From assembly GCA_014905635.1 (NCBI GenBank), contig JABVCE010000013.1, forward strand, positions 868,001-932,000: 64,000 bases of DNA, written 5' to 3'. The notes beneath the pieces are model-generated. The model saw only the letters and a program-made list of their open reading frames with translations, had not been told where the DNA came from and did not search any database. Position numbers and translations under genes: made by a program. Position 1 is the first letter of the stretch. Each line of letters opens with the position of its first letter. Below, piece by piece: positions 26,321 to 57,759 of the stretch. The DNA comes from Scenedesmus sp. PABB004 (taxonomy: Eukaryota).

Positions 26321-27939
26321 CGCCGGCGGCTGCGGGGCGGCGCGCCTCGAGCTGGCGGTTGTTGAAGAGCGCGACCGTCTCTGCGTTGAGCAGCGCGTCG
26401 ACGGCCTTGCTCGTGGTGAGGTTGTCCAGCTGGTTGACCTGCTTGCGCACCTCCACCGCCGCCTGCGTCATGGTGAGCGTCCACGCGACGTACAGCACAA
26501 ACGTGCCGCCCACGAGCCCCGCGACGAGCGGGCTGAAGCGCGTGGCGAGGAGGCCGACCACGAACACGAGCTCGATCGCGGTCGGCGCAAAGGTGAAGAG
26601 CACGGCGCGGTAGAGCATCTGGATCGACCGCGTGCCTGCGCGGCGGCGTGGGCGTGCGTGCGTGCGTGTGTGCACATGTGTGTGTGCGTGTGTGCGGGCG
26701 CGCGTGGGGCGCGTCGAGTGAGCGGCGGCGCCGCGTGCCGGCGCGCGCGCGGCGTGGGGCGCACCGCGCTCGAGGATGCGCGAGAGGCGCCCCGTGCGGC
26801 GGTTCATGTGGAACGTGATGTCCAGCTCCAGCACGTGGCTGAACGTCTGGTAGGCCACGCGCCGCGCGACCGCCTGCGTGCGCGCGGCGCGGCGGGGCAG
26901 GCGGGTGGGCCTCGGCGGCGGTGGCGGCGCGGCCGTGCGCGGGCCGCGAGCCCCGCTGGTGCGAGGCGCTGCCCGGCGCGCCCGCCGCCGCCCGCCGTGC
27001 CCCGCGGGCGCGCCTGGGAGATGGGCGTGAAGGTTGGGTAGGTCAGCTCCTTGGTGAGGTGCTGCGCGACAGCACCCGTGCGTTGCCGCGGGCAGCGCGG
27101 CGGGCGCGGTCAGTCGCGCCCCTGCACGGCGCGGCGGCGCGGCGCGGCGGCGGCGCGCGGACCTGCACGATGCCGCACAGCCCAAAGCACAGCACGCAGC
27201 GCACGGCCGGCAGCAGCGCGGCGTCGCCGGCCGCGCCGAGCGCGTCGACCGCGGCCTTGAGAAACAGCGGGCCGCTCAGGCCTACGATGCGGCGGGCAGG
27301 CGCAGGATTCGGCGGGCGCGTGCGTCGTCGCGCCGCGCCGCCGCGGCGAGGCGCGCGGCCCGCGGCCCGCGGCCCGCGGCCGCTGCTGCTGCCGCGCGCA
27401 GCACAGCACGACGGCGACGCGCGTCGCGGCCGCTGCCGCGCCGCCGCACCGGCGGCCTTTGAGACGAGCATGAATGCAAACGCCGCGCCGAGGCGCCAGC
27501 TGAGCTGGCGCTCCGCCATGGCGAGCTTGAGCAGGTAGGGCAGCACCTCCACGAGGCTCTCCCCGCTGCGCGGCGGCGCCGGCAGCGGCGCGACCGCGGG
27601 CGCCGCCGCGGCCTCGCGCGCGTCGAACGAGACGTGCTGCTGCTCGCCCGCGCCGCCCGGCCACGCCGACGCGGCGGCCGCCGCTGCGACGGCCACGCCG
27701 CCGCGCCGGCGCTGGCGGAGGCTAATGCCGCCGCCGCTGCCGCCGCCGCCGCCGGAGACGGGCGCTGGCGCCGCGGCGTGCGGGCGCGCCGCCGCCGCTG
27801 GCGCAGCAGCAGCCTGGCGCCGCCGCGTGTGGCCGGCGGCGCGGCGCAGCGGGCGCGGCGCCGCTCCCAGGCGCGCCCGCTGCGCCGCCGGCAGCGCGGC
27901 CCGGCAGCCGCCGGGCGCCAGGGCGGCGGCCTGCATCAT
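23813..27939 (-). CDS. ABCB half-transporter of the ATM1/ABCB7/HMT1 type, organelle-targeted, 11 introns
   Basis: Transit-peptide-like N-terminus and TM domain motifs ([39 protein letters not shown]). The NBD has Walker [15 protein letters not shown], the signature [14 protein letters not shown], Walker [12 protein letters not shown] and the H-loop AHRLST. Confidence 0.94.
26192..26246. repeat. Interstitial telomere-like repeat (AGGGYTTAGGG) x5 in an ABCB intron
   Basis: Five 11-nt units, two containing TTTAGGG and three containing CTTAGGG, next to a (GT)n tract. Confidence 0.85.
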
Positions 27940-35236: not shown

Positions 35237-37565
35237 TCAGCTGCCGGGCATGCCGGCGGCCTTGAGCAGCTCGCGGCCGATGAGCATGCGCCGTATCTCG
35301 CTCGTCCCCGCGCCGATCTCAAACAGCTTTGCGTCGCGCAGCAGCCGCCCCGTGGGGTAATCGTTGGTGTAGCCGTTGCCGCCCAGCACCTGCGCAAGGC
35401 GGGCGCGGCGGGGCGCGGCGGGGCGCGGCGACGGCAAGGCGAGGCGTGTGCACGGGTGGGCGAGCGGCGTGGCGCTGTGCGCCGTGAATTGGCCGTGAGC
35501 TGGCGGGCGCGGCGCCGCGGCGCGGCCGCGCCTGTATGGCGTCGAGCGCGGCGCGCGTGGCGGCCTCCGCCGCAAAGAGGATGACCGCCGCGCAGTCGGC
35601 GCGGCTCGCGCGCCCCGCGTCGGCCGCCGCCGCGACGGCGCCGACAAACGCGCGGCACGCGGCTGTCGCGGCGTGCATGTCGGCCAGCTTGCCCTGCACC
35701 AGCTGCGGCGCGGCGCGGGACCGCGCGTGCGCGGGGCGTGCCCTTAATGAGGCCCCCGCACCATCGGCACGTGCGGCGCCGCCGCGATGCGCTGCGCCCC
35801 CACACCAGCGCGCCCAGCGCGCACCGCGCCCCAGCTCCCCGCGCGCCTGGAAGGTGCCGATCGGCCGCCCGAACTGGCGCCGCGTCGCGGCGTATGGCAG
35901 CGCGACGTCGAGCGCCGCCTGCATGAGCCCGACCGGCCCGCCCGCGAGCACGAGGCGCTCGTAGTCCTGCAAGCGGCGGCAGCGACGGCGCCCGGGCGCG
36001 CGGGCGCGGGAGAGGGAGAGCGGGGCGGGGGAGAGGGAGTGAGCGCGCACACACCCGCGCACACACCGCACGCGGCGCGTCGGCCCGGCGCCCTGCCCCC
36101 CCGCCGCACCAGGCCGCTCATGAGCACCGCCGCGCCGCCGTTCTCTGCGCCGAGCACGTTCTCGGCCGGCACCTCCACGTCCTCAAACACGAGCTCGCAC
36201 GTGTCGCTGCCGCGCATGCCGAGCTTGTCGAGCTTCTGCGCCGTGCTGAACCCACGCGCGCCGCGCGGGACGACGAACGCGGTGATGCCGCGAGCGCCGC
36301 GCTCGGGGGCGGTCTTGGCGTAGACTATGAACGTGGAGGCCTGCAGACAGGGGCCAGGGGGGTGCAGCGGGAGCGGGGTTTAGGGGGCCAGCGGGGCATC
36401 GGGGCCGGCCGCGCGTGCGTGCGCAAGGGCGGCGGCGCGCCGCCGCGCGGGGCCAGCCGCGCGGGCCAGCTGGCTGCGCGCGGGAGAGCCCGCTCGAGCA
36501 GCCCACACCACCCCCCCCCCTCTCGCTGGCCGCGCCTTGGGGCCGTTTGTGATCCACATCTTGGTGCCATTGAGCACGTAGGTGTCGCCGCGCCGCTCCG
36601 CGCGCGTGGCCATGCCCATCGCGTCGCTGCCGGCGTTGGGCTCGCTGATCGCGAGCGCGCCGACCGCCTCGCCTGCGGGGCGCGCCGGCGCCGGCGCGCC
36701 CGCAGCCTGGTGGCGGGGGGCCCGCCGCGCGCGCGCGGCCGTGCGCGCATGCCGCCGCTGCCGCCGGCGCTGGCGCAGCGGCGCAGCGAGGCTGCTGCGG
36801 GCTGGGCTGGACCCAGTCTGCCCCGGCTCCGCTCACCGGAGATGAGGGGCGGCAGGAACGCCGCCTTTTGCGCGTCGCTGCCGTTGCGCACGAGCTGGTT
36901 GACGCACAGGTTGCTGTGCGCGCCGTAGCTCAGGCCAACCGACCCCGACGCACGGCTGAGCTCCTGCGGCAGCGCGCAGGGGCCGAGCGCGCGGTCGCCG
37001 ACCGCGCGGCGCCGCGCAGCGGTCAGCGAGGTCTGGTGCCGCGGCGCGCGCACCTCCATCGCGATGCAGTGCGCCTGGTAGCCCAGGCCCAGGCCGCCGT
37101 ACTCCTCGGGCGCCGTCACGCCTGAGCGGGCGCGCGCGCGCGGGCGGGTCTCCCAGCAGCCTGGCGCGGCGCGGCGCGGCGCGCGGCGTGCGTGGCGGGC
37201 GCGCGGCACGCACCGAGCAGGCCGAACGCGCCCATCTCGCGCCAGAGGTCGACGCTGGTGGGGAACGCGTTGCTGCGGTCGATCTCCTCCGCGTGCGGGG
37301 CGACGACGGACGCCGCGAAGCCCGCCACCGCCTCCCTGAACTCGTCCAGCGCGGCCGGGCTGCTGTCCCCGGCGGCGCCCGCGGCCAGGCCCCGCCACTG
37401 CTGCTGCTGCTGGCCCGGCCCCGCGCCGCCGGGGCCGGCGCGCTGCGCTGGCGCGGACGCGGCGCCGGGCCCGCCGCCGCGCGCCGCCGCGGCCACCGCA
37501 GCGCCCGCGGCGCCCCAGGCGGGCAGGCCGCGCCCGCCGCGGGCCAGGGCGGCCACCAGCGCCAT
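35237..37565 (-). CDS. IVD: Isovaleryl-CoA dehydrogenase, mitochondrial, 7 introns
   Basis: [116 protein letters not shown]. Confidence 0.96.
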
Positions 37566-37903
37566 CGGGGCGGGCGTGAGGGTGTCGGAGAAGGGGGTCG
37601 GTCGCGTCCCGTTGGCGCTGCCGGCTCCGCCGCGTCCCGGGCGGTGGCGGGTGTTCGAAGCGTGGCCTCGCGAACGACAGCTCGGCACCGCGCCAGGCGA
37701 GCAGGCGCTGGATCGCGGGCGCGAGCGTTAAGACCGCAACTCGACCCCGCCTCCACTTTGAAGCGATCGTTAGCACCCAGGATCGCTCGCCCGCGCGACC
37801 GGAGCGCCAGCCGCACGCCCACCACCGCCCGCCCTCGCCCGCCCGCGCAAGCGCAGCACCGGCCTCCGTCCCAGGGCGCCCCCGAGGGCGGTACCGAGGC
37901 GCG

Positions 37904-39396
37904 ATGGTGCGTGGCGGGCCGGCTAGCGGCCTGCGGCGCCGCCGCGCGCCGCCGCGGGCCGCCAACCCCCGCTGCCCGCGGCGCTGCTGCTGCTCCCCCG
38001 CCCGCGCCAACCGCCGCGCAGGGCGCGGAGCAGAGCACCCCCGCCGGCCAGGACGGCGTGCCCGAGGCGGGGCCGGGCGCCAAGCCGCGCGCCCTGGTGA
38101 TCTGTGGGCCTTCGGGCGTCGGCAAGGGTGCGCGCCGCCGCCGGGGGCGCTGCTGCTGCGCGCCGCGCGGCCGCCGCGGCGGCGCCGTCACGCGCCGTCG
38201 CCGCCGCTCCTCGCGCAGGCACGCTCATCAAGCGCCTGCTGGGCGGCCCGGACGGCGGGAAGCTCGCGTTCAGCGTGAGCCACACCACGCGCGCGCCGCG
38301 CCCGGGCGAGGCCGACGGCGTGCACTATCACTTTGTCTCGCGCGAGGCCTTTGAAGCGGGTGCGCACGGCGCGGCGGCGGCGCGGCGGCGGCGCAGCGGC
38401 GGCGGCGGCGCGGCGGCGCGCTCGCCTGCGGGGCATGCGCGGCAACGCGCCGTCTCGCTGCGCCGCTGCGCCTCGGCAGGCATCGCGGCGGGCGACTTCC
38501 TGGAGCACGCGTCGGTGCACGGCCACCTGTACGGCACGAGCAAGGCGGCCGTGTCGGCGACCCTCGCGGCGGGCAGGGCGGCGGTGCTGGACGTGGACGT
38601 GCAGGGCGCGCGCCAGGTGCGCGCGGCGGGGCTGCCGGCGCTGCTCGTCTTTGTCGCGCCGCCGTCGCTCGAGGAGCTGGAGCGCCGCCTGCGCGGCCGC
38701 GGCACCGAGACGCCCGTCAGCATGGAGCGGCGCATCGCCGCGGCGCGACAGGAGATCTCCAGGCGCGCGCGCCGCGCCGCGCGCGCCGGCGCCGGCGCAC
38801 GCCAGCAGCACGCCCCGCGCAGCCTCGCGCCCCCGCCTCACCCTGTTCCGCCCCGCCCCGCCTCCGGGTGGCCGGCCAGCTTGAACGAGCGGGGGTTATT
38901 TGACTATCTGCTGCTCAACGACGACCTCGACGCCACGTCGGCCGAGCTCGGCCGCATCGCCACGCGCGCGCTGCAGGGCCTGCCGGCGGAGCCGGGCCAG
39001 GTGCCCGACGAGGTGCGGCGCGGCGCGGGCAGCGGGCGGGCGGCCGCGGCGGCGGCCGCGGCCGCGGCGGCGGCGGCGGGGCGGCGGAGGCCCACGCGCC
39101 GCGGCGCGGCGCGCCGCGCAGGTGCGGTTTGAGGACGGCGACGAGGCGGGCAGCCGGGCGCCGGGCGACGACGAGGCCGCGGCGGCGCTGGGCGGCTCCG
39201 GCTCCAACGCGGCTGCGGCGGCCGCCGCGGGCATCCAGGCCGCCGCGGCGCTGCCGAGCGTCGACTCGGGCGCGCTGGCGCGCAGCCCGCGCCCGCGTGC
39301 GGACGCAGCGGAGCAGCAGCAGGCGCCGCAGCCGGCGGGCGGCACCGGCGCAGCGGCGGCGGCCGCTGCGGCGGTGCCGTCGCCGCCCCAGCAGCA

Positions 39397-39436
<40 letters not shown>

Positions 39437-40724
39437 CAGCAGCAGCAGGCGCCGGTGCCGGAGCAGCAGCAGCAGCCGGCGGCGGCAGCGGGCCCCTCCG
39501 GCGCGGCCGCGGGCGCCGCGGTCGCGGCGGGGCTTGACGCGTGGCGCGGCAAGGTCGCGCTCGTGACGGGCGCGTCGTCCGGCATCGGCTGGGCGGTGTG
39601 CGAGGCGCTCGGCCGCGCGGGCCTGCGCGTCGTCGCGGTCGCGCGGCGCCGCGAGCGCCTGCAGGAGCTGCAGGCGCTCGTGCTCGGCCCGGGCGTCGGC
39701 ATGGCGCCGTCCGACTTCCTGCCTGTCGTGTGCGACGTGACCAAGGAGGCGGAGGTCGCGGCGCTGCCCAAGATCATTCTCAAGCACTGGCCCGACGCCG
39801 GCGTGGACGTGCTGGTGCGCCCGCCGCGGGCGGGCGGGCGTCTGCGCGCGCCGCGTGCACGCGCGCGGGCGGGCGGGCGGCTGGGGCGTCGGGGGCGCGC
39901 CGCGCGCCCGCGCACGGGGCTCGACGCCGCCGGCGCCGCCGGCGCGCCGCGCGCCGCAGGTGAACAACGCCGGCCTGTCGCGCAACGACGCGTCGCTGTT
40001 CAACGGCAACACCGCGAGCTGGTGCGGCGGCGGCGCGCGCGCTGCGGACCCGCGCCGGCCCTGCCGGCCGGCGCGGCGCGCCACGCGCAACGCCGCGCCG
40101 CCGCGGCGCCGGCAGGGTTGAGATGGTGAGCACCAACATCCTCGGCAACGCCATGGCCACGCGCATGGCGGTGCAGGACATGAAGCGCCGCGGCGCGTGG
40201 GGGCACATCATCAACATGTGCGCCTGCGCCCGCCGCCGCCGCCGCCACGCCGCCGCCGCCGCCACGCCGCCGCGGCCGCCACACCCGCGGCCGCCCGCGC
40301 CGAGCGCCCACACCACCCCGACGCCCGCCCACGCCCCGGCGCCCGCCGCCGCTTCACTCGCGCCCGCTCCCCTCGCGCGCGCAGGGTGGGCCTGAGCGGG
40401 CACCGCATCCCCGACGGGCCCGCGGGGGGCGGCTTCTTCGCCGCGACCAAGTTTGCGGTCCGCGCGCTGACCGAGGGCCTGCGCCAGGAGGCGCGCGGCG
40501 CGGGCGTGCCGCTGCGTGTGAGCGGCATCTCGCCGGGCCTGGTGGAGACCGAGTTCTTCGCCGTGCGCGCGTTTGGCGACGCCGGCGCCGCGGCGGCGGT
40601 CACGGCCGCGATCGAATGCCTGCAGCCGGCCGACGTCGCGGCCGCGGTGCTGTGGGCGCTCGCCGCGCCGGCGCGCATGGAGGTCAACGACATCGTCATC
40701 CGCCCCACGGCGCAGATGGTGTGA
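37904..40724 (+). CDS. Guanylate kinase fused to a DHRS11-like short-chain dehydrogenase domain, 8 introns
   Basis: ATG|intron|GAEQS start. GK motifs: [61 protein letters not shown]. Intron 39013-39121 joins in frame to a poly-Q linker and then SDR motifs ([33 protein letters not shown]). Confidence 0.85.
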
Positions 40725-41200
40725 CGGCGGCACGCGCGCGCGTGTGCGTGGTGGTGTAAAGCGCTGACAACACACGAGCTCGTCCCGCAAAAGCTGAAGA
40801 GACTGCCGGCAGCGGCTTGCCGGTTGCGCTCCCGCGCGCGCCGCCGGCACGTGCGCCTCCGCCGCTGCGCAGCGGCGACCGCCGGCTACCGCACGGCGCG
40901 ATCGCACGATCTGGAGGCGATGTGGGGCGCGCGGGGGAGCGGTCCGGGGCTTGTGGGTTCTGCCGCCGCCGCGCTCCAATGATAGTGACAGCACTGGCGC
41001 CCGAACTGGGCAGCGCCGCGCCCGACGCCCCACTCCGATCGCGCATGGGTCGATCACAGACCGTCGTCGCGCCCCGCAGGGCCGGCGTGCGCTGCTCGCT
41101 CGCGGGCCATCCGGCTCACAGCTCCGCGTCTGCCATCTTTTCCGCTTTCGACCTGGAGCTACTCTACTGGACGCCTGAGCGCCGGGGCGCGGCCGCCGAG

Positions 41201-41586
41201 ATGCGGGGAGCCGCGCTCGCGGCGGCGGTTTGCATCCATGCGCGCCGGCCACACCAGGTGCGCGCGGGGGCGCGGGGGCGCGATCGCGGCGGCCCCCGGG
41301 CCCGCTCGCATCCGGGGGGAGCCGTCCCCGCGCCAGCAGCGGCGCGCGCGTGCAGGCAGCCGCCGCGCCCGCCCACGCGCCGCGCCCGCTCCGCCCCGCG
41401 CCGCGCAGGCCTGCGCGAGCCTTGCAGCCGCCTTGCTGGCGGCGGCTCCCGCGCCGCTGTGGCTGCGGCTGGCGGAGGCCGTCCTGCTCGCGCTGCTGTG
41501 CGCGCCGTGCGCCGCGGCGGCGTCCCCCACGGCGCGGGCAGCGCGCGGCCGCGGCCCGCCCGCCAAGCAGGCGCCGGCCGGCCCGA

Positions 41587-41628
<42 letters not shown>

Positions 41629-44600
41629 CGACCGGCAGCGGCGGCAGCAGGACCGGCAGCGGCGGCAGCGACGGCGGGCGCGCGCGCGTGAGCAGCGCGA
41701 GTAGCGGCTCGTCGCGCGGCGCCGGCTGGCCGGCCAGCGGCAGCGGCGGCAGCGGCGGCGACGACGGCGGCGACGGCGACGACGAGCGGCAGCGGCGCGG
41801 CGGGCTGCCGAGCGCGCACTCGCTGGACGGCGCGGGCGCGCCGCCGGCGGGCGAGCAGCAGGACGCGCACACGACGCCGCCCGCCTCCGCTGCCGTGACG
41901 GGGCCCTGGCGCCTGGCCTCGCCGTTTGCTGCGCCGCTGCCGGCGTTCAGCGGCGAGCCGCCCGACCCCGGCCAGCCCCGGCCCGCCGGCAGCGCCGGCG
42001 GCAGCCGGCGCAGCAGCGCGAGCGGCAGCAGCAGGAGCGCCAGCGGCGGCGGCGACGCCCCGCACGACGGCGCCGGCGCGCCGCGCGACCAGGGTCAGCG
42101 GGCCAAGCCCGGCGGCGGCACGGCCGCCCCGGCCCAGGTGACGGGCGGCGGCAGCAGCGCCGCGAGCACGCGCCGCGCAACCGAGCATGCGGCCCGGCAG
42201 CTGCTCGCGCAGCAGCTGCAGCCTGTGCGCGCGGCGCGCCCCAAGCCGCGCCGCGCGTCCCTAGAGCTGCCGGCGGAGCAGCGCCAGACGGCATCGCCCA
42301 GGGGCACGACGGGGCCCTTTGCGCTGTCGTCCCCTTTCGCGGCCGCGGCAGTGGGCGGCGGCGGCGGCGCTTCCGCCGCAGCGCTCGTGTGCCCCGGGAC
42401 GGCCGACCCGTTTGGCAGCCCGTTCCCGCTGCTCGCGCAAGGCGCGGCGGCCGAGGCGGTTGCCATCGCAGCCGCGGCGGTGCAGGCTGGCGCGCTGCAG
42501 GCGGCAGCGGCCGCCACGTGCGCGGCCGGCCGGGCGCAGGCCGTGGCGGGCGCGGCGGGCGAGCAGGAGGCGCCGCGGGGCGCGCAGGCGCCGTCCGGGG
42601 CGAGCAGGGCCGGCAGCGCTGGCTCCGCCGGGCGGGGCGGCGGCGCCGTCGGCGACGCGCAGCAGCTCCCGCTGCCGCCCGGCGGCGGCGAGGCCTGCCA
42701 GCCGCGGGGCCAGCCGCTCGTGGGCGCGTGCACGGGCATGAGCAGCCTGGCGAGCCACGCGACCGAGCCGCGCTTCAGTCTGCCCTTCAGCTTCCCCAGC
42801 CTGGGCGCGAGCGCCGCGGGGCTGAGCAGCAGCGCCGGCACGGCCGCGCTCGACTACGGCGGCGCGGCGAGCGCCGCGCCCGCGCTGCACGACGGCGAGC
42901 TCGCGGAGCTGCAGGCCCAGCCCGTCGAGCCCAGCTCCTCGCTGCTGCTCGGCGCGGCGGGGCTCAGCCCCGCGTCCTCGGCGGAGCGGGCCGGCGAGGC
43001 GGCGCCGCGCGAGCTGCCGACGCTGGGCGGCGAGGACGGCGCGTGCGCGGCGCCCGGGCTCAAGGAGCGGGCGGCGCAGGCGGCGGCGCTGCAGGTCCAC
43101 GACAGCGTGAGCAGCCACCAGCAGAACATCAAGCAGCGCCTGCTGGCGCAGCTCGCCGCGCGCGCGCAGGCACCCGAGCCGGCACCGCTGCAGCCGCCGG
43201 CGCCGGCGCTGGCGCCGGTGCTCGCGACGCCCGTGGCAGCGGCCGTGGCCGCCCCGATGGCGCTGCCGCAGGCCGTGCTGGGCGCCGTCGCTGCCGCCGC
43301 GCCCGGCAGCGTGCTGCTGGCGCCGCTGGCGCCGCTGCCTGGCACGTCGCCGGCGGCAACCATGCAGCTGGCGGCCGCCGTGCTGGCCACGCAGGCCCAG
43401 GCCGGAGCCCTGGAGGCGGCCGGCCCCTCCCTGGAGGCGGCGGTGGCGACGCAGCTGGCCGCGGCCGGGGTGCAGCAGGTCGCGGCCCTGCCAGTGGTGC
43501 CGGTGCCGGCGGCGGGCCGGCCGGTCCCCATCAAGACGCCGTCGCCCGCCCAGGCTGCGGCCGCCCAGGCGGCGGCGACGGCGGCGGGCGTGGCGCCCTG
43601 CCCGGCGCCGCCCAGCCCCGCGGCCGCGCCGCCGTCGGCGCAGGGCGCCGCCCTGCTCGAGCCGCAGCCTGCCGCGGCGGCGGCGGCGGTGCAGGCGAGC
43701 GGCGTCAGCTGCGCCTGCTGCTACCCGGCCTGCCTGACTGAGGCGCAGGCCGTGGTGGTGTCCGTGCACGTGGCCGGCCTGGAGCGGCTCGCGGGCGGCT
43801 GGCCTGGCGGCGCGTCGCTCGCGTTCCGGGCCGTCGCGTGCCACAGCCAGCAGGTCGTGGCAGACGTGCGCGGCACGCTGCTGCCCGGCGAGGGGTTCCT
43901 GCGCGTGGCGCTGCCGCCGCTGCCCCGCGGCGTGCTGCAGCTGGTCCTGCTGCTCCCGGAGCCGGCGCTCGCGTTCACGCAGGCGCTCCTGGTGCTGCCG
44001 GCGCCGTGCGCGGCCGAGATGTGCCTGCTGTGGGCAAGCCAGCTGCAGGCGCGCCTCAGCGCGGCGGCCGCGCTGCAGCGCGGCCTCGCCGGCGGCGGGC
44101 GGCCGTCGGAGCAGGGGGAGGCCGGCACGCGCGGCTCGCTGGAGGTGGGCAGCTGGGCGGGCTCCGGCTGGACCAGCCAGGGCAGCAACGCCAGCGCCGG
44201 CAGCAGCTGCGGCCCGGCTGCTAGCAGCCCGCGCCCCGCCGCCGGCGCCTGGGCCGACCAGCTGCACGCCGCGGCGGCGCGGGCGCGCCTGCAGTGCGCC
44301 GCCGCGCCGCACGGCGCGAGCCCGCCCTCGCCTGCGGCGTCGCCGTCGGCGCCAGCGTCGTCCGGCGCCAGCGCCGTCAGCGCGGCCGAGGCCGCCGACG
44401 TGTGGGCGGGCGAGTACATGCCTGTGGCCTCGGACCTGGCGTGCCTGCTGACCCACGCGGCGCAGCTGCAGGCGCACCACAAGCCGCCCGCGCTCGCGGC
44501 GGCGCTCAGCCTCGCCGCCAGCGGCGTGTCCGGCACGCCCTCCACGGCGCCCAGCACGCCCGCGGCGCCCGCCTCGCCGCGCCCGCCGCCGGCGGGGGGC

Positions 44601-45347
44601 GCGCCCGCGGGCGGCAGCTTCGCCGCGCCCGCCAGCGCCGCCGCGCTCGCCGGCCTGTGCGGCCCCGCCGCGGCCGCGCTCGCGGAGGCGCTCGCGGCGC
44701 CGGCGGGCGCGGTGAGCGCAGACGACCCTGGGTTCAAGGGCCTCGTGACGGGCCTGGTGCAGGCCCTCGCCGCCGCGGCGCTGTGGGCGACGCTGCAGCT
44801 CACGACGGACTTGGTGTACGGCGTGGGCGCGAGCGCAAAGGCCCTCTACGTGGCCAAGGCCGGCCGGGGCGCGCCCGGCAGCGGCAGCGGCGCGACGACC
44901 AAGGCGGGCAGCGAGGCGAGCGCCGACGGCGGCGGCGCCCGCCCGGGCTCGGGTGCGGGCGCGGGCGCGGCGCGCGCCCGCGGCGCGGCGGCCGCCGGCG
45001 CCGGCGCCGCGCCGGGCGGCGGCGGGCCGGCCGCGCGCGACGCAGTGGCGGACGCGCTCGCCGCGGCGCGGGGCGGGCAGGCGCCCGAGCTGCCCGGCGT
45101 GGCGCTGCTGCTGCTCCTGGTCGTGCGCGCCGCGCTCGCACGCCGCGCCGCCGGCCTGCGCCGCGGCGCGGCCGCGGCGGGCGGCGCCGCGCTGCCCGCG
45201 CTGCGCGCGGCCGCGGCCGCGGCCGGCCGCGCGCTGCTGGTGGTGGCAGTCGTGCTCGTGTGGGCGCTCGAGCGCGCGGCGCAGCTGCCGCAGCTGCTCG
45301 TCGCGCGCCTGACGCTGGGCGCCGACACCGGGCTGGAGGAGGAGTGA
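41201..45347 (+). CDS. Large low-complexity hypothetical protein (about 1300 aa) with hydrophobic segments near both ends
   Basis: An open frame of about 4 kb with GC3-biased codons. The probable first exon is MRGAAL...PHQ|GTGCGC with an acceptor at about 41408. The start is uncertain and no family was recognised. Confidence 0.6.
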
Positions 45348-52700: not shown

Positions 52701-55700
52701 ATGGCGCCGGTGCGGCGCGCTCCGGCCGGCTGCGATTGAGGAAGCGGCGGCGCGCCCTGGCTGCGCCCTGAGCTGCCGGCCGCCGCTCCGCTGCTGCCGG
52801 CACCCGCAGTCGGCCGCCGCCGTCCGGGGCGGCGACGGCGACGGCGGCTGCTTCGTGACCTTCCTGCCCGGCGACAACCAGGACCTCGCAAGCGCGTCGA
52901 CGCAGGCGACGGTGGAGCTGATGTCGGCGGACCTGTCGCAGCTGCTCCGCCTGCCGCCGGCGGCGTTCTGGCACGTCGTCCTCGCCGACGCGTCGCTGCA
53001 CGCCTGCCTGGACTCCTTCCTGCGCTTCCGCAGGCGCGCGCGGGGCGGCCGCGCGGCGCAAGCGCGCGCGGGGTGCCTGCAGCGCGTGCACGCCGCGGAC
53101 GCAGCCGCGGCGCCGACCTCCCTCCCCGGCGCAGGCGGTGCTACGACGACGACGGCGACGCGCAGGGCGCGGTGCAGGGCTCGTCGGACGTGCTGCTGCA
53201 GCTGTCGCAGCGCGTGTTCAAAGTCTTCTGGCGCATGTGCGCGCGGCGCGGGGCCAGCAGCCCGACCGCCCCTGCAGCGCCGCTCGCCCGCCGACGCGCG
53301 CCCCGCGCGCGCCTCGCTCGCGCAGGGCGCACCCGCAGGAGCTCACGGACGCCGCGCCGCGGCAGCCGCCCGCCGCTGGCGGGCGCGGCGGCGGGCGCGG
53401 CGGGCGCGGCGGTGGCGGCCGGGCCGGCGCAGCACCTGCGGGCGCGCTGCAGCCGGGCGATGCGGCGGCCGCGCTGTACGATCGCTGGCTGGTGGACGTG
53501 CCGAAGCTCATGGACCTGGCCGTGCTCTATGGCCCCGGCAACCCGGAGCTCACGCGCCAGCTGCTGCAGCAGGTGCTGCGCCTGCAGCCGCGCTACGCCC
53601 AGGTGCGGCGGGGAGGTGTGCTCGGCGGCGGTCCCGCCGCGGCGCCCTCGCGCACGGCGCGGCGCGGCGCGCGCTCACGCGCCTGCGGCGTCCGTCCGTC
53701 CGTCCCGGGCGGCCGGGCAGGACGTGGTGCGCCTCGCCGAGCCGCTGAGCGGCAACCTGCACGAGCTGGCGTTGAGCGTGAAGCGCCTGGCCAACCGCGC
53801 GCTCGCGGGCGCCAGCGCGGGCGACGGCGCCGGCGCGCCGCTGCTCGCGGAGCTCTCCGGTGCGCGGCACGGCCGCGCGGCGGCGCGCCCGCGTCGAACA
53901 TGCGGACGGCCGCGCCGCCGCCGCGTGCGGCCCGCCGCCGCCGCCTTCTCTGCCGCCGACCCGCCGCTGCGCCGACGCCGGTCCCACCACTGCAGAGTCG
54001 GTGCGTTACTTCACGGACGCGTTCCTGACGCTGCAGGCCCTGGCCGACTGCCTGCCCGAGGCCGCCGCGCTGCTGCTGGCGCCGGTGCACCACGGCGCGC
54101 TGCTGCTCGCGCTCGCCGTCGTGCACGGCGGCGTGCTGCCGCTGCTCGCGCGCGTCGCGGCGCAGCCGCAGGCCGCGGCGCACCCGGCGCTCGCGCCGGG
54201 CCGCGTGCGGCGGCTGCAGGTCGCGCTCGAGCGCCTGGTCTTCTGCCTCCTGCGCGCGGCGTTCTGCACCCCCGAAGGCGCCAGCGCGGCTGCCGCTGCC
54301 GCCGCTGCAGCTGCGGCCGCGGCGGGCGCGGGCGCCGAGGCGCGCCGCGCCGGGCGCGGCCCGCGGCGGCGCCGGCGGACGGCGGCGGCTTCAGCGCTGA
54401 GCTGCAGGGCCAGGAGCTGATGAACCTGCTCATGCTGCTGGCGCACCCCTCGGACCACACAGCTGCTGGCGGCGACGGCGGCGGCGGCGGCGCGCCGCAC
54501 CAGCAGGCGGGCCTGCTGACGGCGCTGAATCACGCGCACCACCTGGACGTCGCAGTGGCGGGCGCCGCGGAGCTGGTGCGCAGCGCGCGGGTCATTGCAG
54601 CGCCTCCGCGCTCGTCGCTGCGGCGCCTGCGCCTTGACCGCCCGCCCGCCCGCCCGCGCGCGCGCAGGGCCTGCTGTCGCTGGACGACGCCCAGTTTGAT
54701 TACATGCTGGCGCTGCTGGACGGCGACCGCGAGCTGCTGCAGCGCCGCCAGCAGCAGCAGGTGCAGCAGCAGCAGCAGCAGCAGCCGCAGCCGGGCGGGG
54801 CAGCTGGCGCCGTCGCCGCCGCCGCCGCCGGCGCCGCGCAGACGGCGCCGCCGCCTCTGGGCGAGCTCGCGGCGCAGCTGGCCGCCATCCGCGAGCTGCT
54901 GCCTGACTTTGGCGACGGCTACCTCACCGCCGCGCTCTTCCACTGCGGCTGGAGCACCGAGGCGGCGATCAACTGCCTGCTCGAGGGCGCCCTGCCCGCG
55001 GGGCTGCGCGGCCTCGAGCCGGGGCTCAAGTCCTGGACGCCGCCGGCCGCGGGCGCCGGCGGCGACGGCGGGCAGGCGGGGGCGCTGTCGTGGACAGGCC
55101 TCGCGCGCGAGGCGGCGTCCGCCGCGCCGCCGCGCGGCGCCGCCGACGTGCCGCTGCCGAGCGCCGCGGCCGCGGCGGCGGCGGCGGCGGGCGGCGGGCC
55201 GCGCCCGGCCGTCGACCGGCGCACGGGGCGCGTGCTCGGCGCGCTGCCGGCCGCTCTGCGCTCGGCGACCAAGAGCATCGCGGCGGAGATGCAGTTTGAG
55301 TATGACGACGAATATGACGACTCCTTTGACGACCTGGTCGGCCCCGGCGCCGACGGCGTGTGCGACATCGAGGTCGAGGACAGCGGCGCGGCGGCGGCCG
55401 CGCGCGGCGGCGGCGCGGGGCCGAGCGGCGGCGGCGCCGGCGGCGCGGGCCCGGGCGGCGCGGGCCCGAGCGGCGGCGCCGGCGCGGGTGCGCGCGGCGG
55501 CCGGCGGCCCGCGGCGGACCGGCTGTGGGTGGCGGACGGCAAGGTCTATAACTACAAGCGCGCGGGCGCGCAGGAGGTCGCCGGCCAGGCGGGCGCGGCG
55601 GCGGCGCTCGCGGCGGCGCGCGCGGCGGCGGCGCAGATCCACGGGCTCGGCCCCGGCGGCAACGTGCCGCCGCCCGCGGCGCCGCCGCCGGGGCAGGGCC

Positions 55701-55969
55701 GCGGTGGCGGCGGCGGCGGCGCAGCGGCGCCCGGCCCGCCGCCCGGCGACGGCGGCGGCGGCGGCCGGGGGCGCGGCGGCGCGCCGGGCCGCGGCGGCGG
55801 CGGCGGCGAGCCGGGCGGCGCGCCGCCCGGCGAGGACGGCGGCGGCGGCGGGCGCGGCCGCGGGCGCGGGCGGGGCGGCTACGCGCACAAGGAGGCGCAC
55901 AAGGGCGCCATTGGCAACCACCACCGCAAGGACCGCGCCACGGCCAAGGCGGCGCGGGGCATGTTCTGA
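52701..55969 (+). CDS. ASCC2: Activating signal cointegrator 1 complex subunit 2 (CUE-domain protein)
   Basis: SLHACLDSFLRFR, LVDVPKLMDLAVLYGPGN, a CUE domain (IRELLPDFGDGYL...AAINCLLEG), EYDDEYDDSFD and the C-terminal NHHRKDRATAKAARGMF. Confidence 0.9.
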
Positions 55970-56096
55970 CCGGCCGGACCGGGCACTGGGTGTAACCGCG
56001 GTCGCCCGCCACGCCCGCCGGCCTGCGCAACAGTCAACCTCGCCGCCGCGCACGGCCGCCAGCCGGCCGGCCGCCGGCCGGCCGCCGGCCCCGCGC

Positions 56097-56942
56097 TCAC
56101 GCCGCGCCGCCCGCGCCGCGGCCGTCGTCGCCGGGCGGCGGCAGGCCCTCCGCCTCGCGCACGCGCCGCGCCGCGTCGGCATAGCCGGCCGCCTTGCGGG
56201 CCACCATGCCGTCGTCAGCCGTCCCGCCGGCGGTGTCGATCTCGCCCGCGCGCCGCGTGTCGGTGTTGAGGTTGGCGTCCGGCGCCTGCTCGCCCCACGC
56301 GGCGCGGCCGTCCGCGTCCGACACGGGGGAGTCGTCGGGGCGCGGCGCGCCGTGCCCCGCGGCCGTGTCGGCGCCGCCGCCCGCCGCGGCCTGCACGGCG
56401 GCGCCGAGCGCCGACGCCGCGCCGGCGGCCGCCCGCGCAGCGGCGCCCGCGGCGCCGGCGGCCTTCTCTGCCAGCCGGCCGGCGATGTGGGGCGCGTGCG
56501 CCGCGAACGAGCCGCCCACGCCGGGGCCGCGGCTCTCGTCGGAATAGCTGCTGCGGCGACGGCAGACGGTTGTGGCTGCCGCGGCGCGGCACGCGCGCAC
56601 GAGCGCCGCCGCCCGCGCGCGCGCGGCGCACCTGCCGGCCATGGCCTGGTCCGCCTGCCACGGCGCGCGGCGCAGCGCCTCGTCCGGGTCGGCGCCCCTG
56701 TTGGCGGCCGCGGCCGCCGGGTCGGCCGGCGCGTCGGGGCTGCGCGCCGGCCCGCTCTCGACGTTGGCCTCCCCCGCCGCCGCAGCCTGCTGCACGCTGC
56801 GGCTCCGGGGCCCCGGGCCCGGGCCGGCGGGCCGCTCGCCGCGGTCGCCGCCCGCGCTGAGGCCGCGCCGCGCAGCGGCGGCGGCGGCGGCGGGCGCGCG
56901 CCGCGCGGGCGCGGTGCCGGCGCGCAGGAAGAGCGGCAGCAT
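56097..56942 (-). CDS. Hypothetical hydrophilic protein with a mitochondrial-presequence-like N-terminus
   Basis: MLPLFLRAG...ARRGLSAGG start, a probable in-frame intron at about 56553-56631 and an Ala/Asp/Gly-rich body. Confidence 0.55.
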   Translation of the reverse strand: MLPLFLRAGTAPARRAPAAAAAAARRGLSAGGDRGERPAGPGPGPRSRSVQQAAAAGEANVESGPARSPDAPADPAAAAANRGADPDEALRRAPWQADQAMAGRCAARARAAALVRACRAAAATTVCRRRSSYSDESRGPGVGGSFAAHAPHIAGRLAEKAAGAAGAAARAAAGAASALGAAVQAAAGGGADTAAGHGAPRPDDSPVSDADGRAAWGEQAPDANLNTDTRRAGEIDTAGGTADDGMVARKAAGYADAARRVREAEGLPPPGDDGRGAGGAA

Positions 56943-57759
56943 CGTGGCAGGCACAACGGCGAGGGCGGGGGAGTGGCGAGCGAGGCGGCGCGGCGCGCTG
57001 GGAGCGGTCGGGCGCGCGGCCGGCCGTCACGCGCAGCGCGCGCACAACAGTCGCGAGGCGACGTCGGATCGCGCGTGCAGTAGCTCGTGCCCCCCTCTGC
57101 CTGCGGCGGGTGCGGGACCGAGCGGGCGCGTTGCCGCCGCCGGCGCCGGCCGCCGGCGACGTCGCGTGCGCCGCGCCGGCCCTGGCCGCCCTGGCCTGCT
57201 GCGCGTGTCGACGACGTGACCCCGCTCTATCTAGCATGATGGCGTGCCAGCAGCGACCGCGGTCGGAGAACGGCGGCTCGAGGTCGTGGGCACCGCTGGC
57301 ACGACTCCCGGCGCTGCGCGGCCTCCCCGCGCCCCGAGCGCCTGCTCTCCACATCACCACTCCACACGCCCCCTCTCCGGCGCCAGGCAGGCGGCCGGAA
57401 CGCCCTGCGCGCGAGCAGCAGGCAGCGGCAGCCGCGCGCCAGCGCCCCGCCCCACCCCACCCAGGCCTCGCCAGCCGCCCACGCCACCCTCACAGGCTGT
57501 GCCCCCACCCGGCCAGCCCCACGCGCCACCCCCCGAGCTCCCACGCGCGCCGGTCACCGGGAAGGGCGCTTCCCCGCTTCGCGGCCGGCAGAAGCGCAGC
57601 CGGAGGCCCCTCGCCGCCCGCGCGCGCGCCTGGCAGCTCACTTACATTACGTCCCACCCTCTCGACCATCGCGCCGCGCCCCCCTCGCCCCGCATCGTCG
57701 AGAAGCCGGTGCCCCCCCGGACGGCGGCACCGCGCGCGCCGCGCCCTGCGCAGTGCGTC

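Follow-up and report, generated by a model that had tools for sequence, protein, structure and literature searches.

A 64,000-nucleotide (nt) stretch of contig JABVCE010000013.1 from Scenedesmus sp. PABB004 (assembly GCA_014905635.1, positions 868,001 to 932,000 of the forward strand), hereafter the window, carries a gene at 37904-40724 in which a guanylate kinase (GK) appears to continue into a short-chain dehydrogenase/reductase (SDR) with a damaged active site. This raises the question of whether the two halves form one protein and, if so, what use a nucleotide kinase might have for a dehydrogenase that seems unable to catalyse its reaction. Coordinates below follow the numbering of the window and refer to the + strand unless stated otherwise. 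Comparison with related sequences indicates that kinase and dehydrogenase belong to one coding unit, and we favour, with moderate confidence, the reading that the product is a GK, active and probably myristoylated, with an SDR domain that is non-catalytic but retained as a cofactor-binding or oligomerising module.

A kinase and a dehydrogenase-like domain in one gene

The rebuilt gene model (37904-40724, +) has nine coding exons and a coding sequence of 1863 nt for 620 amino acids (aa), which begin with MGAEQS and continue through a complete GK and a linker of some 140 residues, rich in Ala and Gln, into an SDR resembling DHRS11 and YdfG. Seven of the eight introns are GT-AG with GTGCG[CGT] donors and intron 4 is GC-AG; introns in the window are generally short, with ends of the form GTGCG...CAG. 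The open frame that connects GK and SDR is no evidence on its own, because stop codons are rare at a G+C content of about 80%, which prevails throughout the window and leaves 363 stop-free stretches (open reading frames, ORFs) of at least 120 aa. The fusion was instead tested through collinearity with orthologues. The window protein shares 472 identities over 620 residues (76%) with the 608-aa orthologue P0003, the gaps of this alignment are confined to the N-terminal spacer and the linker, none falls at any of the eight splice junctions, and the spliced junction between GK and linker (...PDE joined to VRF...) is identical in P0003. Because the alignment is gapless at the junctions, it supports the join behind the isolated ATG, the GC-AG intron 4 and the join of GK and linker. 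P0003 itself is an ORF without interruption, found on contigs no longer than 2659 nt, and, since the window gene has eight introns, is most simply explained as cDNA-derived. The initial annotation had proposed in-frame splicing through the intron at 39013-39121 into linker and SDR, with neither Met nor stop ahead of the Rossmann motif, and the rebuilt, P0003-collinear model bears this out, the linker frame being open from 38885 and free of Met up to that motif. Judged from these sequences, GK and SDR are a single gene and one coding unit, and separate genes are very unlikely, while a minor GK-only isoform of 261 aa, ending at a stop at 39130-39132 through retention of intron 5, is possible. 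The parts of the gene are the following.

37566..37903, no strand: intergenic, separating the start codon of GK-SDR from the head-to-head acyl-CoA dehydrogenase gene (minus strand); probable site of a bidirectional promoter and of the 5' untranslated region (UTR) of exon 1
37904..37906, +: start codon, last three bases of exon 1; donor GTGCGT follows, and splicing to 38022 yields MGAEQS, as in orthologues
37907..38021, +: intron 1, 115 nt, GT-AG; junction gapless against P0003
38022..38127, +: exon 2, Gly2-Ser6 of the myristoylation motif (38022-38036), acidic spacer, start of the P-loop
38128..38218, +: intron 2, 91 nt, GT-AG; splits the P-loop codons
38219..38359, +: exon 3, end of the P-loop, SHTTR GMP-binding motif (38278-38292); Pfam Guanylate_kin 44.4 bits
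38360..38479, +: intron 3, 120 nt, GT-AG; in frame and open, retention would add 40 aa
38480..38762, +: exon 4, GK core including the lid; Pfam Guanylate_kin 85.8 bits; match to PDB 1LVG with E 5.5e-26
38763..38879, +: intron 4, 117 nt, GC-AG, the sole non-GT donor of the gene; in frame and stop-free
38880..39012, +: exon 5, C-terminal helices of GK and the conserved EPGxVP motif
39013..39121, +: intron 5, 109 nt, GT-AG (GTGCGG...CAG); GK-to-linker junction, joined in frame
39122..39814, +: exon 6, linker (39122-39538) and N-terminal third of the SDR; Pfam adh_short 49.3 bits
39815..39959, +: intron 6, 145 nt, GT-AG
39960..40021, +: exon 7, NNAG motif 39963-39974
40022..40115, +: intron 7, 94 nt, GT-AG
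40116..40217, +: exon 8, helix with tetrad Asn481 (40135-40137) and strand β5; adh_short 14.9 bits
40218..40384, +: intron 8, 167 nt, GT-AG; interrupts INMVGLSGHR
40385..40724, +: exon 9, C-terminal part of the SDR with catalytic-site positions, PGxxxT motif (40530-40556) and stop TGA 40722-40724; adh_short 28.0 bits
40755..40759, +: TGTAA, likely polyadenylation signal, 31 nt 3' of the stop codon

The ATG at 37904 is the only one on the + strand in 37500-38021, within 520 nt scanned upstream of exon 2, and is expected to be merely the coding end of exon 1, with 5' UTR upstream; if this splice is disregarded, no in-frame ATG precedes 38022 back to a stop at 36957. Retention of intron 4 would insert 39 residues into the GK domain at a place where orthologues have no insertion. 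The linker encoded by exon 6 is rich in Ala, Gln, Gly and Pro, and its poly-Gln/Glu run is encoded by a (CAG)n array at 39389-39476 of about 29 units (83% matches), the length of which could differ between strains. The TGTAA pentamer, which we take to be the green-algal poly(A) signal, occurs on the + strand between 30000 and 48000 only at 40755..40759, and hence not between the GK and SDR parts.

The green-algal family, its kinase half and its N-terminus

When the last SDR exon was compared with longer proteins, 13 of the top 24 matches were found to carry both PF00625 (Guanylate_kin) and PF00106 (adh_short), among them Chlamydomonas reinhardtii CHLRE_09g394102v5 and proteins of Gonium, Tetrabaena, Astrephomene, Volvox africanus, Edaphochlamys, Haematococcus and Monoraphidium neglectum. 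A profile built from these 13 fusions found at least 62 proteins with both domains among the 120 matches listed, several of them ORFs from transcriptome assemblies (MMETSP, a transcriptome shotgun assembly (TSA) record, Trinity contigs), and, together with cluster names, they represent 28 named green-algal species; an exhaustive search among representative proteins added further members, with both domains in 7 of 38 tested matches. These species belong, as we take it, to the Chlorophyceae, Trebouxiophyceae, Ulvophyceae (Bryopsis, Caulerpa) and Chlorodendrophyceae (Tetraselmis). On the strength of these matches, the GK-SDR fusion is a family spread across the Chlorophyta and not an oddity of this genome. 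The combination of Guanylate_kin and adh_short that the initial annotation had singled out for a search in chlorophytes is thus present in 62 of the 120 listed proteins, and the same architecture was already in public protein sets for the 28 named algae.

The C. reinhardtii protein (592 aa) and the 'guanylate kinase 1' of M. neglectum (653 aa) have their parts in the same order as the window protein, to which the two are 56-64% identical in GK and 72-78% in SDR. The names of the orthologues are automatic annotations. Linker length among the fusions ranges from 18 to 161 aa (median 83), and in none of the 62 listed has the SDR been swapped for an unrelated sequence. A scan of metagenome contigs with P0003 yielded one relative, a fragment of 2152 nt with Gly at the catalytic Ser, Tyr kept and other intron positions. 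No stand-alone intact paralogue from a green alga is named among the 120 matches listed when the SDR region of P0126 is compared with shorter proteins, which is weak evidence; most of the 120 are nameless, the named algal matches in this search are partial models of the fusion gene, and the other named ones are bacterial or animal, at about 50% identity. In a language-model atlas, the nearest cluster is a bacterial one (Acidobacteriota) of 434-aa proteins annotated as AAA plus short-chain dehydrogenase (score 0.95), followed by DHRS11 clusters (0.90); the former may be an analogous bacterial fusion of a P-loop kinase with an SDR. We found no paper that describes the GK-SDR architecture or its Chlamydomonas member, although supplementary tables may hold proteomic detections of the Chlamydomonas orthologue; a literature match combining GK, SDR and Chlamydomonas lists unrelated genes only, and guanylate kinase is unmentioned in the algal organelle proteome papers among the matches listed. 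The family is thus already catalogued in protein databases and, as far as we found, undescribed.

The GK half seems complete. Its P-loop, GPSGVGKGT (residues 30-38, fitting GxxGxGK[ST]), is identical in nearly all fusions, the SHTTR, YGTS and DxDxQG motifs and the lid arginines are present, and of the 57 GK columns in which 95% or more of 56 fusions agree, the window departs from the consensus in none. The residues of GKs that contact guanosine monophosphate (GMP) and ATP are known from solved structures. In the profile libraries the window was scored exon by exon, so that full-length scores are those of P0003: the scores of exons 3 and 4 for PF00625 exceed the cut-off of 25.2 bits, and P0003 passes the guanylate-kinase equivalog TIGR03263 (214.4 against a cut-off of 160.45). 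The best solved relatives are the mouse and human GKs (P0003 against 1LVG, E 3.4e-51), and the domain aligns end to end with mouse GUK1 (1LVG) and yeast Guk1 (1EX6/1GKY). From its sequence we infer that the GK half is an active GMP kinase. Characterised GKs are single-domain proteins of about 190-200 aa, to which the window protein adds a lipidation motif, a long linker and an SDR of 260 aa. The cytosolic GKs of streptophytes (land plants and Closterium; for example P0255), which occur among the GK matches of the same profile search, also have a large accessory domain, but this is an N-terminal Kelch beta-propeller, unlike the SDR of the window protein, which lies C-terminal to the GK. In membrane-associated guanylate kinases (MAGUKs; PSD-95, MPP/p55), which are weaker PDB matches, the GK fold likewise occurs at membranes, but there it is a pseudoenzyme; the window protein is the mirror image, with a GK that looks complete and a partner domain that has lost its catalytic residues.

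Myristoylation requires, according to the PROSITE pattern, Gly2, a small or uncharged residue at position 3, a residue of the Ser/Thr type at position 6 and no Pro at position 7, and the spliced N-terminus MGAEQST fits. The MGAEQS (MGxxxS) motif created by the ATG-only exon had been pointed out in the initial annotation, which left the conservation of Gly2 to be checked. With the window included, 45 of 47 fusions that have a Met start and a P-loop begin with MG and match MG-x-x-x-[STAGCN], 17 of the 45 reading MGAEQS, and Gly2 is thus probably N-myristoylated. Stable membrane binding of myristoylated proteins follows a two-signal principle. In the fusions, Cys is absent from the first 12 residues in 42 of 42 N-termini, and none of them is net basic over its first 20; because of this, the protein, if myristoylated, would lack the usual second membrane signals near the lipid. 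The land-plant GKs P0192, P0197, P0208, P0210, P0212, P0215 and P0216 begin with MGEAPA, in which Gly2 is conserved but Glu3 does not suit the myristoylation pattern.

Other nucleoside monophosphate (NMP) kinases carry this lipid, the mammalian AK1-beta and Plasmodium AK2 being N-myristoylated adenylate kinases. They resemble the proposed protein in placing an NMP kinase on a lipid tether, which is thought to serve local nucleotide supply, but they have no SDR domain. The ODA5-associated adenylate kinase of Chlamydomonas is predicted to be myristoylated according to Table II of the flagellar proteome paper (PMC2171396), and this paper lists two GKs, neither of them among the predicted myristoylated proteins. 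No report of myristate on Gly2 of GK-SDR proteins was found in the literature.

Lost catalytic residues and constraint in the SDR domain

The SDR half scores 49.3, 14.9 and 28.0 bits for PF00106 in exons 6, 8 and 9, respectively (cut-off 26.6), and its best solved relative is human DHRS11 (1XG5; E 1.2e-56 for P0003 and 1e-22 for the last exon of the window). With DHRS11 and the NADP-dependent 3-hydroxy acid dehydrogenases of the YdfG type it shares the G(M/L)xxW lead-in, TGASxGIG, ARR, NNAG and SGHR. All cofactor motifs are kept, namely the three glycines of TGxxxGxG, the Arg pair, the Asp, NNAG and PGxxxT; within exon 6, TGASSGIG lies at 39566-39589, ARRR at 39641-39652 and CDVT at 39731-39742. 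Basic residues after β2, which here are ARRR (residues 396-399), select NADP(H) in SDRs. Such a role of these arginines is also supported by an account of MAT2B (PMC3793261). Neither P0003 nor the SDR exons of the window reach any enzyme-level NCBIfam cut-off (YdfG: about 120 bits, 120.3, against 411 for P0003), and because no equivalog cut-off is reached, the SDR half is best described as a member of the fold family but of no named enzyme. For the NmrA family, no Pfam match was obtained with the SDR exons of the window at E values up to 1; since the domain is a classical and not an NmrA-like SDR, any sensor role would be convergent.

The catalytic tetrad of classical SDRs, Asn-Ser-Tyr-Lys, is incomplete in the window, where the four positions are Asn481, Gly510 (40389-40391, the Ser position), Phe526 (40437-40439, the Tyr position) and Lys530 (40449-40451). 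In a HMMER alignment to human DHRS11 (1XG5), the Ser of ININSMSGHR is matched by Gly and the Tyr of FYSATK by Phe, the window reading FFAATK at 40434-40451 with TTC at the Tyr position of YxxxK. All the motifs named in the initial annotation (TGASSGIG, ARR, FAATK with its TTC codon, INMVGLSGHR) were found again at their coordinates, and the DHRS11 motif ININSMSGHR, which it had quoted, is correct according to this alignment. Catalysis in SDRs depends on the Tyr as acid/base, and characterised members are inactive once it is exchanged for Phe. DHRS11 itself has Ser and Tyr and stands unfused, in contrast to the Gly and Phe of the window protein and its fusion to a kinase. Ser and Tyr are found in 99 of the 107 unfused homologues matched by the motif scan, and the other eight have Gly at the Ser position, at least seven of which look like fragments of fusion orthologues. 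A sequencing error as the origin of the Phe was rejected, as it is common to P0001, P0002, P0003, P0005, P0011 and P0021, and GC pressure as the cause of the change from Tyr to Phe was rejected in view of the codons of both residues, which are AT-rich.

An alignment of the window, 62 fusions and 7 unfused homologues shows that this state is one of several. All four tetrad columns are filled in 60 fusion rows, distributed as follows.

NSYK (complete): 15/60 rows; 13 trebouxiophyte-like and 2 unnamed
NGYK: 14/60 rows; all other Chlorophyceae, including Chlamydomonadales
NGFK: 4/60 rows; window, P0003, P0005, Monoraphidium neglectum
NQYK: 7/60 rows; Tetraselmis-like
NCHK: 4/60 rows; Chlorella-like
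Other combinations: 16/60 rows; including Bryopsis and Caulerpa

Gly replaces Ser in all Chlorophyceae, and Phe additionally replaces Tyr only in the clade of the window; Chlamydomonas and the other Chlamydomonadales keep the Tyr, the trebouxiophyte-like proteins also the Ser, and the window shares its NGFK with Monoraphidium and two unnamed relatives alone. In a maximum-likelihood tree, the fused SDRs group together to the exclusion of 6 bacterial homologues (99% support), and within this group the Chlorophyceae (95%) and the four NGFK rows (99%) are clades. With the trait columns masked, this tree requires at least four changes of the Ser state and at least four of the Tyr state. Because the full tetrad is present in 15 rows and the changes are repeated on the tree, the ancestral fusion was most likely a working reductase, from which residues were lost repeatedly, and the SDR decayed independently in Chlorella-like and Tetraselmis lineages. 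The dead-looking SDR of the initial annotation therefore stands for the window, which lacks the catalytic Ser and Tyr and keeps the cofactor motifs, but not for the family: the term pseudo-SDR would fit only the clade of the window and some other lineages. Likewise, the exchange of Tyr for Phe is conserved within the well-supported NGFK clade, but other lineages differ, and YxxxK, the retention of which by orthologues had been named as evidence against the reading, is kept in the 14 NGYK and 15 NSYK rows, so that this objection applies in part. Among single sequences, P0139 (Bryopsis) keeps Ser and Tyr and has Gln for the catalytic Lys, and P0165 (Caulerpa lentillifera) has no recognisable tetrad or Gly-rich motif in an SDR domain that is still there; both genera we take to be of the same ulvophyte order, Bryopsidales. 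P0186, a metagenome protein of 336 aa without a recognisable GK P-loop, likewise shows Gly for Ser and Phe for Tyr; it emerges on a long branch where the fused clade begins, and may be a fragment or an independent loss.

Loss of these residues was not accompanied by general decay in the clade of the window. We considered 43 SDR columns that do not vary among 6 bacterial homologues and 13 fusions in which both the catalytic Ser and the catalytic Tyr are retained. In the clade of the window, 5/43 of these are changed in any of 3 NGFK members (38/43 unchanged), and only Ser510Gly and Tyr526Phe are altered in all 3; the corresponding numbers are 9/43 in NGYK Chlorophyceae, 14/43 in Tetraselmis-like and 22/43 in Chlorella-like proteins. 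Few SDR differences are fixed between Chlorophyceae and trebouxiophyte-like proteins, several of them beside NNAG and the lost Ser, and the loop after β5 (GLSGHRIPD...GG) is conserved throughout the Chlorophyceae. The divergence of the SDR relative to that of the GK, given as medians, ranks the lineages as follows.

Clade of the window (NGFK): 0.61; 3 pairs
Full tetrad, trebouxiophyte-like: 0.77; 78 pairs
Other Chlorophyceae (NGYK): 0.86; 91 pairs
Tetraselmis-like: 1.08; 15 pairs
Chlorella-like: 1.68; 45 pairs

The same trend is seen in the pairwise identities of the window, which are 56% for GK and 72% for SDR with C. reinhardtii, and 64% and 78% with Monoraphidium. Selection on the SDR of this clade is thus as strong as in those lineages in which the domain presumably works as an enzyme.

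Possible roles of the SDR domain

For the window protein, we therefore return to an active, probably lipid-anchored GK with a retained, non-catalytic SDR as the reading that we favour. The GK half would phosphorylate GMP, and the SDR half would carry out no canonical hydride transfer but would be kept for a non-catalytic job, the likeliest of which would be NADP(H) binding without turnover combined with the usual SDR dimer or tetramer. Classical SDRs form dimers or tetramers through long helices. A single myristate on an acidic, Cys-free N-terminus would be a weak anchor, and SDR oligomers would gather several myristoyl-GK units and thus raise membrane avidity; in addition, cofactor occupancy could tune membrane association or GK output. 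Because the linker is of low complexity and varies so widely in length, a flexible tether fits better than a fixed allosteric interface, and we keep the non-catalytic SDR of the initial annotation but have moved weight from its redox sensor of GK catalysis, with the putative link to the GMP/GDP or cGMP pool, to a cofactor-binding module for oligomerisation or tethering.

SDR folds that serve regulation have precedents. NmrA is a regulatory protein of SDR fold, HSDL1 has its Tyr replaced by Phe, and HSCARG/NMRAL1 is reportedly, to go by the title of a paper, an NADPH sensor. None of the three is fused to a partner enzyme, however, and none is close in sequence. MAT2B binds NADP(H) and regulates methionine adenosyltransferase, according to the account cited above (PMC3793261). 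It offers a functional analogy only, as it keeps YxxxK, is not fused to its partner and is no close relative in sequence.

Several points weigh against the proposed module. The variable linker (18-161 aa) speaks against a fixed GK-SDR interface and hence against tight allostery. The Gly-rich motif is missing in Caulerpa and some unnamed lineages, which rules out NADP(H) binding as a function common to the entire family. Conservation of the SDR pocket in Chlorophyceae would fit residual or altered catalysis equally well; a Ser two residues after the lost Ser, His514 and Lys530 all remain, and the divergence ratio of 0.61 in the clade of the window rests on 3 pairs only.

A more specific proposal, which we regard as tentative and rather unlikely, is that the SDR senses NADPH/NADP+ and, by cofactor-dependent oligomerisation, sets the clustering of myristoyl-GK at the membrane or the output of GK, in which case NSYK, NGYK and NGFK might be a stepwise series from enzyme to sensor under full constraint.

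The alternative that survives best, although we likewise hold it to be improbable, is that the SDR is still an oxidoreductase, and the protein a bifunctional enzyme, with either non-canonical catalysis, for example by the downstream Ser, His514 or Lys530, or a substrate that does not depend on the Tyr. The strong constraint (divergence ratio 0.61, 38/43 invariant columns unchanged), the retention of the cofactor motifs together with Asn and Lys, the post-β5 loop conserved throughout Chlorophyceae, and the full tetrad of trebouxiophyte-like orthologues, which suggests an ancestral enzymatic role, would all agree with it. However, the window has undergone both Ser-to-Gly and Tyr-to-Phe changes, the latter at the acid/base residue of SDRs, and other lineages that have lost more residues or motifs keep the domain nevertheless, which indicates that elsewhere it is retained without catalysis.

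Considerably less probable still is that the SDR is a functionless relic, a decaying appendage of an essential GK in this lineage. Catalytic residues were indeed lost at least four times each on the SDR tree, the Chlorella-like SDR outpaces its GK (ratio 1.68, with 22/43 invariant columns changed), and Caulerpa is without even the Gly-rich motif; but the SDR in the clade of the window is more conserved than the GK (78% against 64% with Monoraphidium, 72% against 56% with Chlamydomonas), only 5/43 invariant columns are touched, the frame is intact over three introns, and 0 of the 62 listed fusions have replaced the SDR by unrelated sequence. A reading as two neighbouring genes or two distinct transcripts, in which the GK would stop at the TGA at 39130-39132 and the fusion would be an artefact of GC-rich open frames, draws on the 261-aa product of intron 5 retention and on the abundance of open frames (363 of at least 120 aa), but can hardly be upheld against a spliced junction identical in P0003, both domains in one ORF in 62 listed proteins including transcriptome ORFs, the lack of a Met between junction and Rossmann motif and of a TGTAA between the parts, and intron 5 splice sites that match those of the other introns of the gene.

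The genes around this locus are ordinary eukaryotic nuclear ones: CAP, S49 peptidase, protein kinase, Bax inhibitor-1, ubiquitin-S27a, SKN1/KRE6, ABC transporter, acyl-CoA dehydrogenase and GH9. The nearest of them upstream, and a further call and two frames of the window, are listed here.

35240-37565, minus: acyl-CoA dehydrogenase gene; Acyl-CoA_dh_N/M/1 Pfam matches on minus-strand frames 35240-37727, several exons
27707-27798: tRNA-Gly(GCC) call by ARAGORN, 92 nt
40989-45344 and 52740-57080, +: frames of about 1450 codons free of stops; no Pfam match

The start ATG of the acyl-CoA dehydrogenase gene is read at 37565-37563 (minus), which leaves about 338 nt between both start codons; downstream of the GK-SDR gene, the next recognised gene is GH9 at 48.8-51.7 kb (minus). 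Rfam at gathering thresholds gives no family anywhere in the window, so that the tRNA call is unconfirmed, or its gene holds an intron. The long stop-free stretches may be artefacts or low-complexity proteins.

No way from GMP to GDP and GTP other than guanylate kinase is known to us, and in each of the 28 named green algae found, which come from four sampled classes, the cytosolic form of this enzyme bears a lipidation motif together with a domain derived from a dehydrogenase. Automatic annotation as "guanylate kinase 1" or as "DHRS11" covers only half of this protein in either case. The family offers a graded natural experiment in the origin of pseudoenzymes, from the full tetrad through one residue lost in Chlorophyceae to two lost in the clade of the window, with constraint unrelaxed, and with Chlorella-like lineages, in which the SDR decays freely, in the same series. 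It opens tests in Chlamydomonas and other model algae of what use a non-catalytic SDR is to a nucleotide kinase, and of a possible influence of the photosynthetic redox state on GTP or cGMP metabolism; if the sensor proposal were true, it would couple redox state to guanine-nucleotide supply in green algae.

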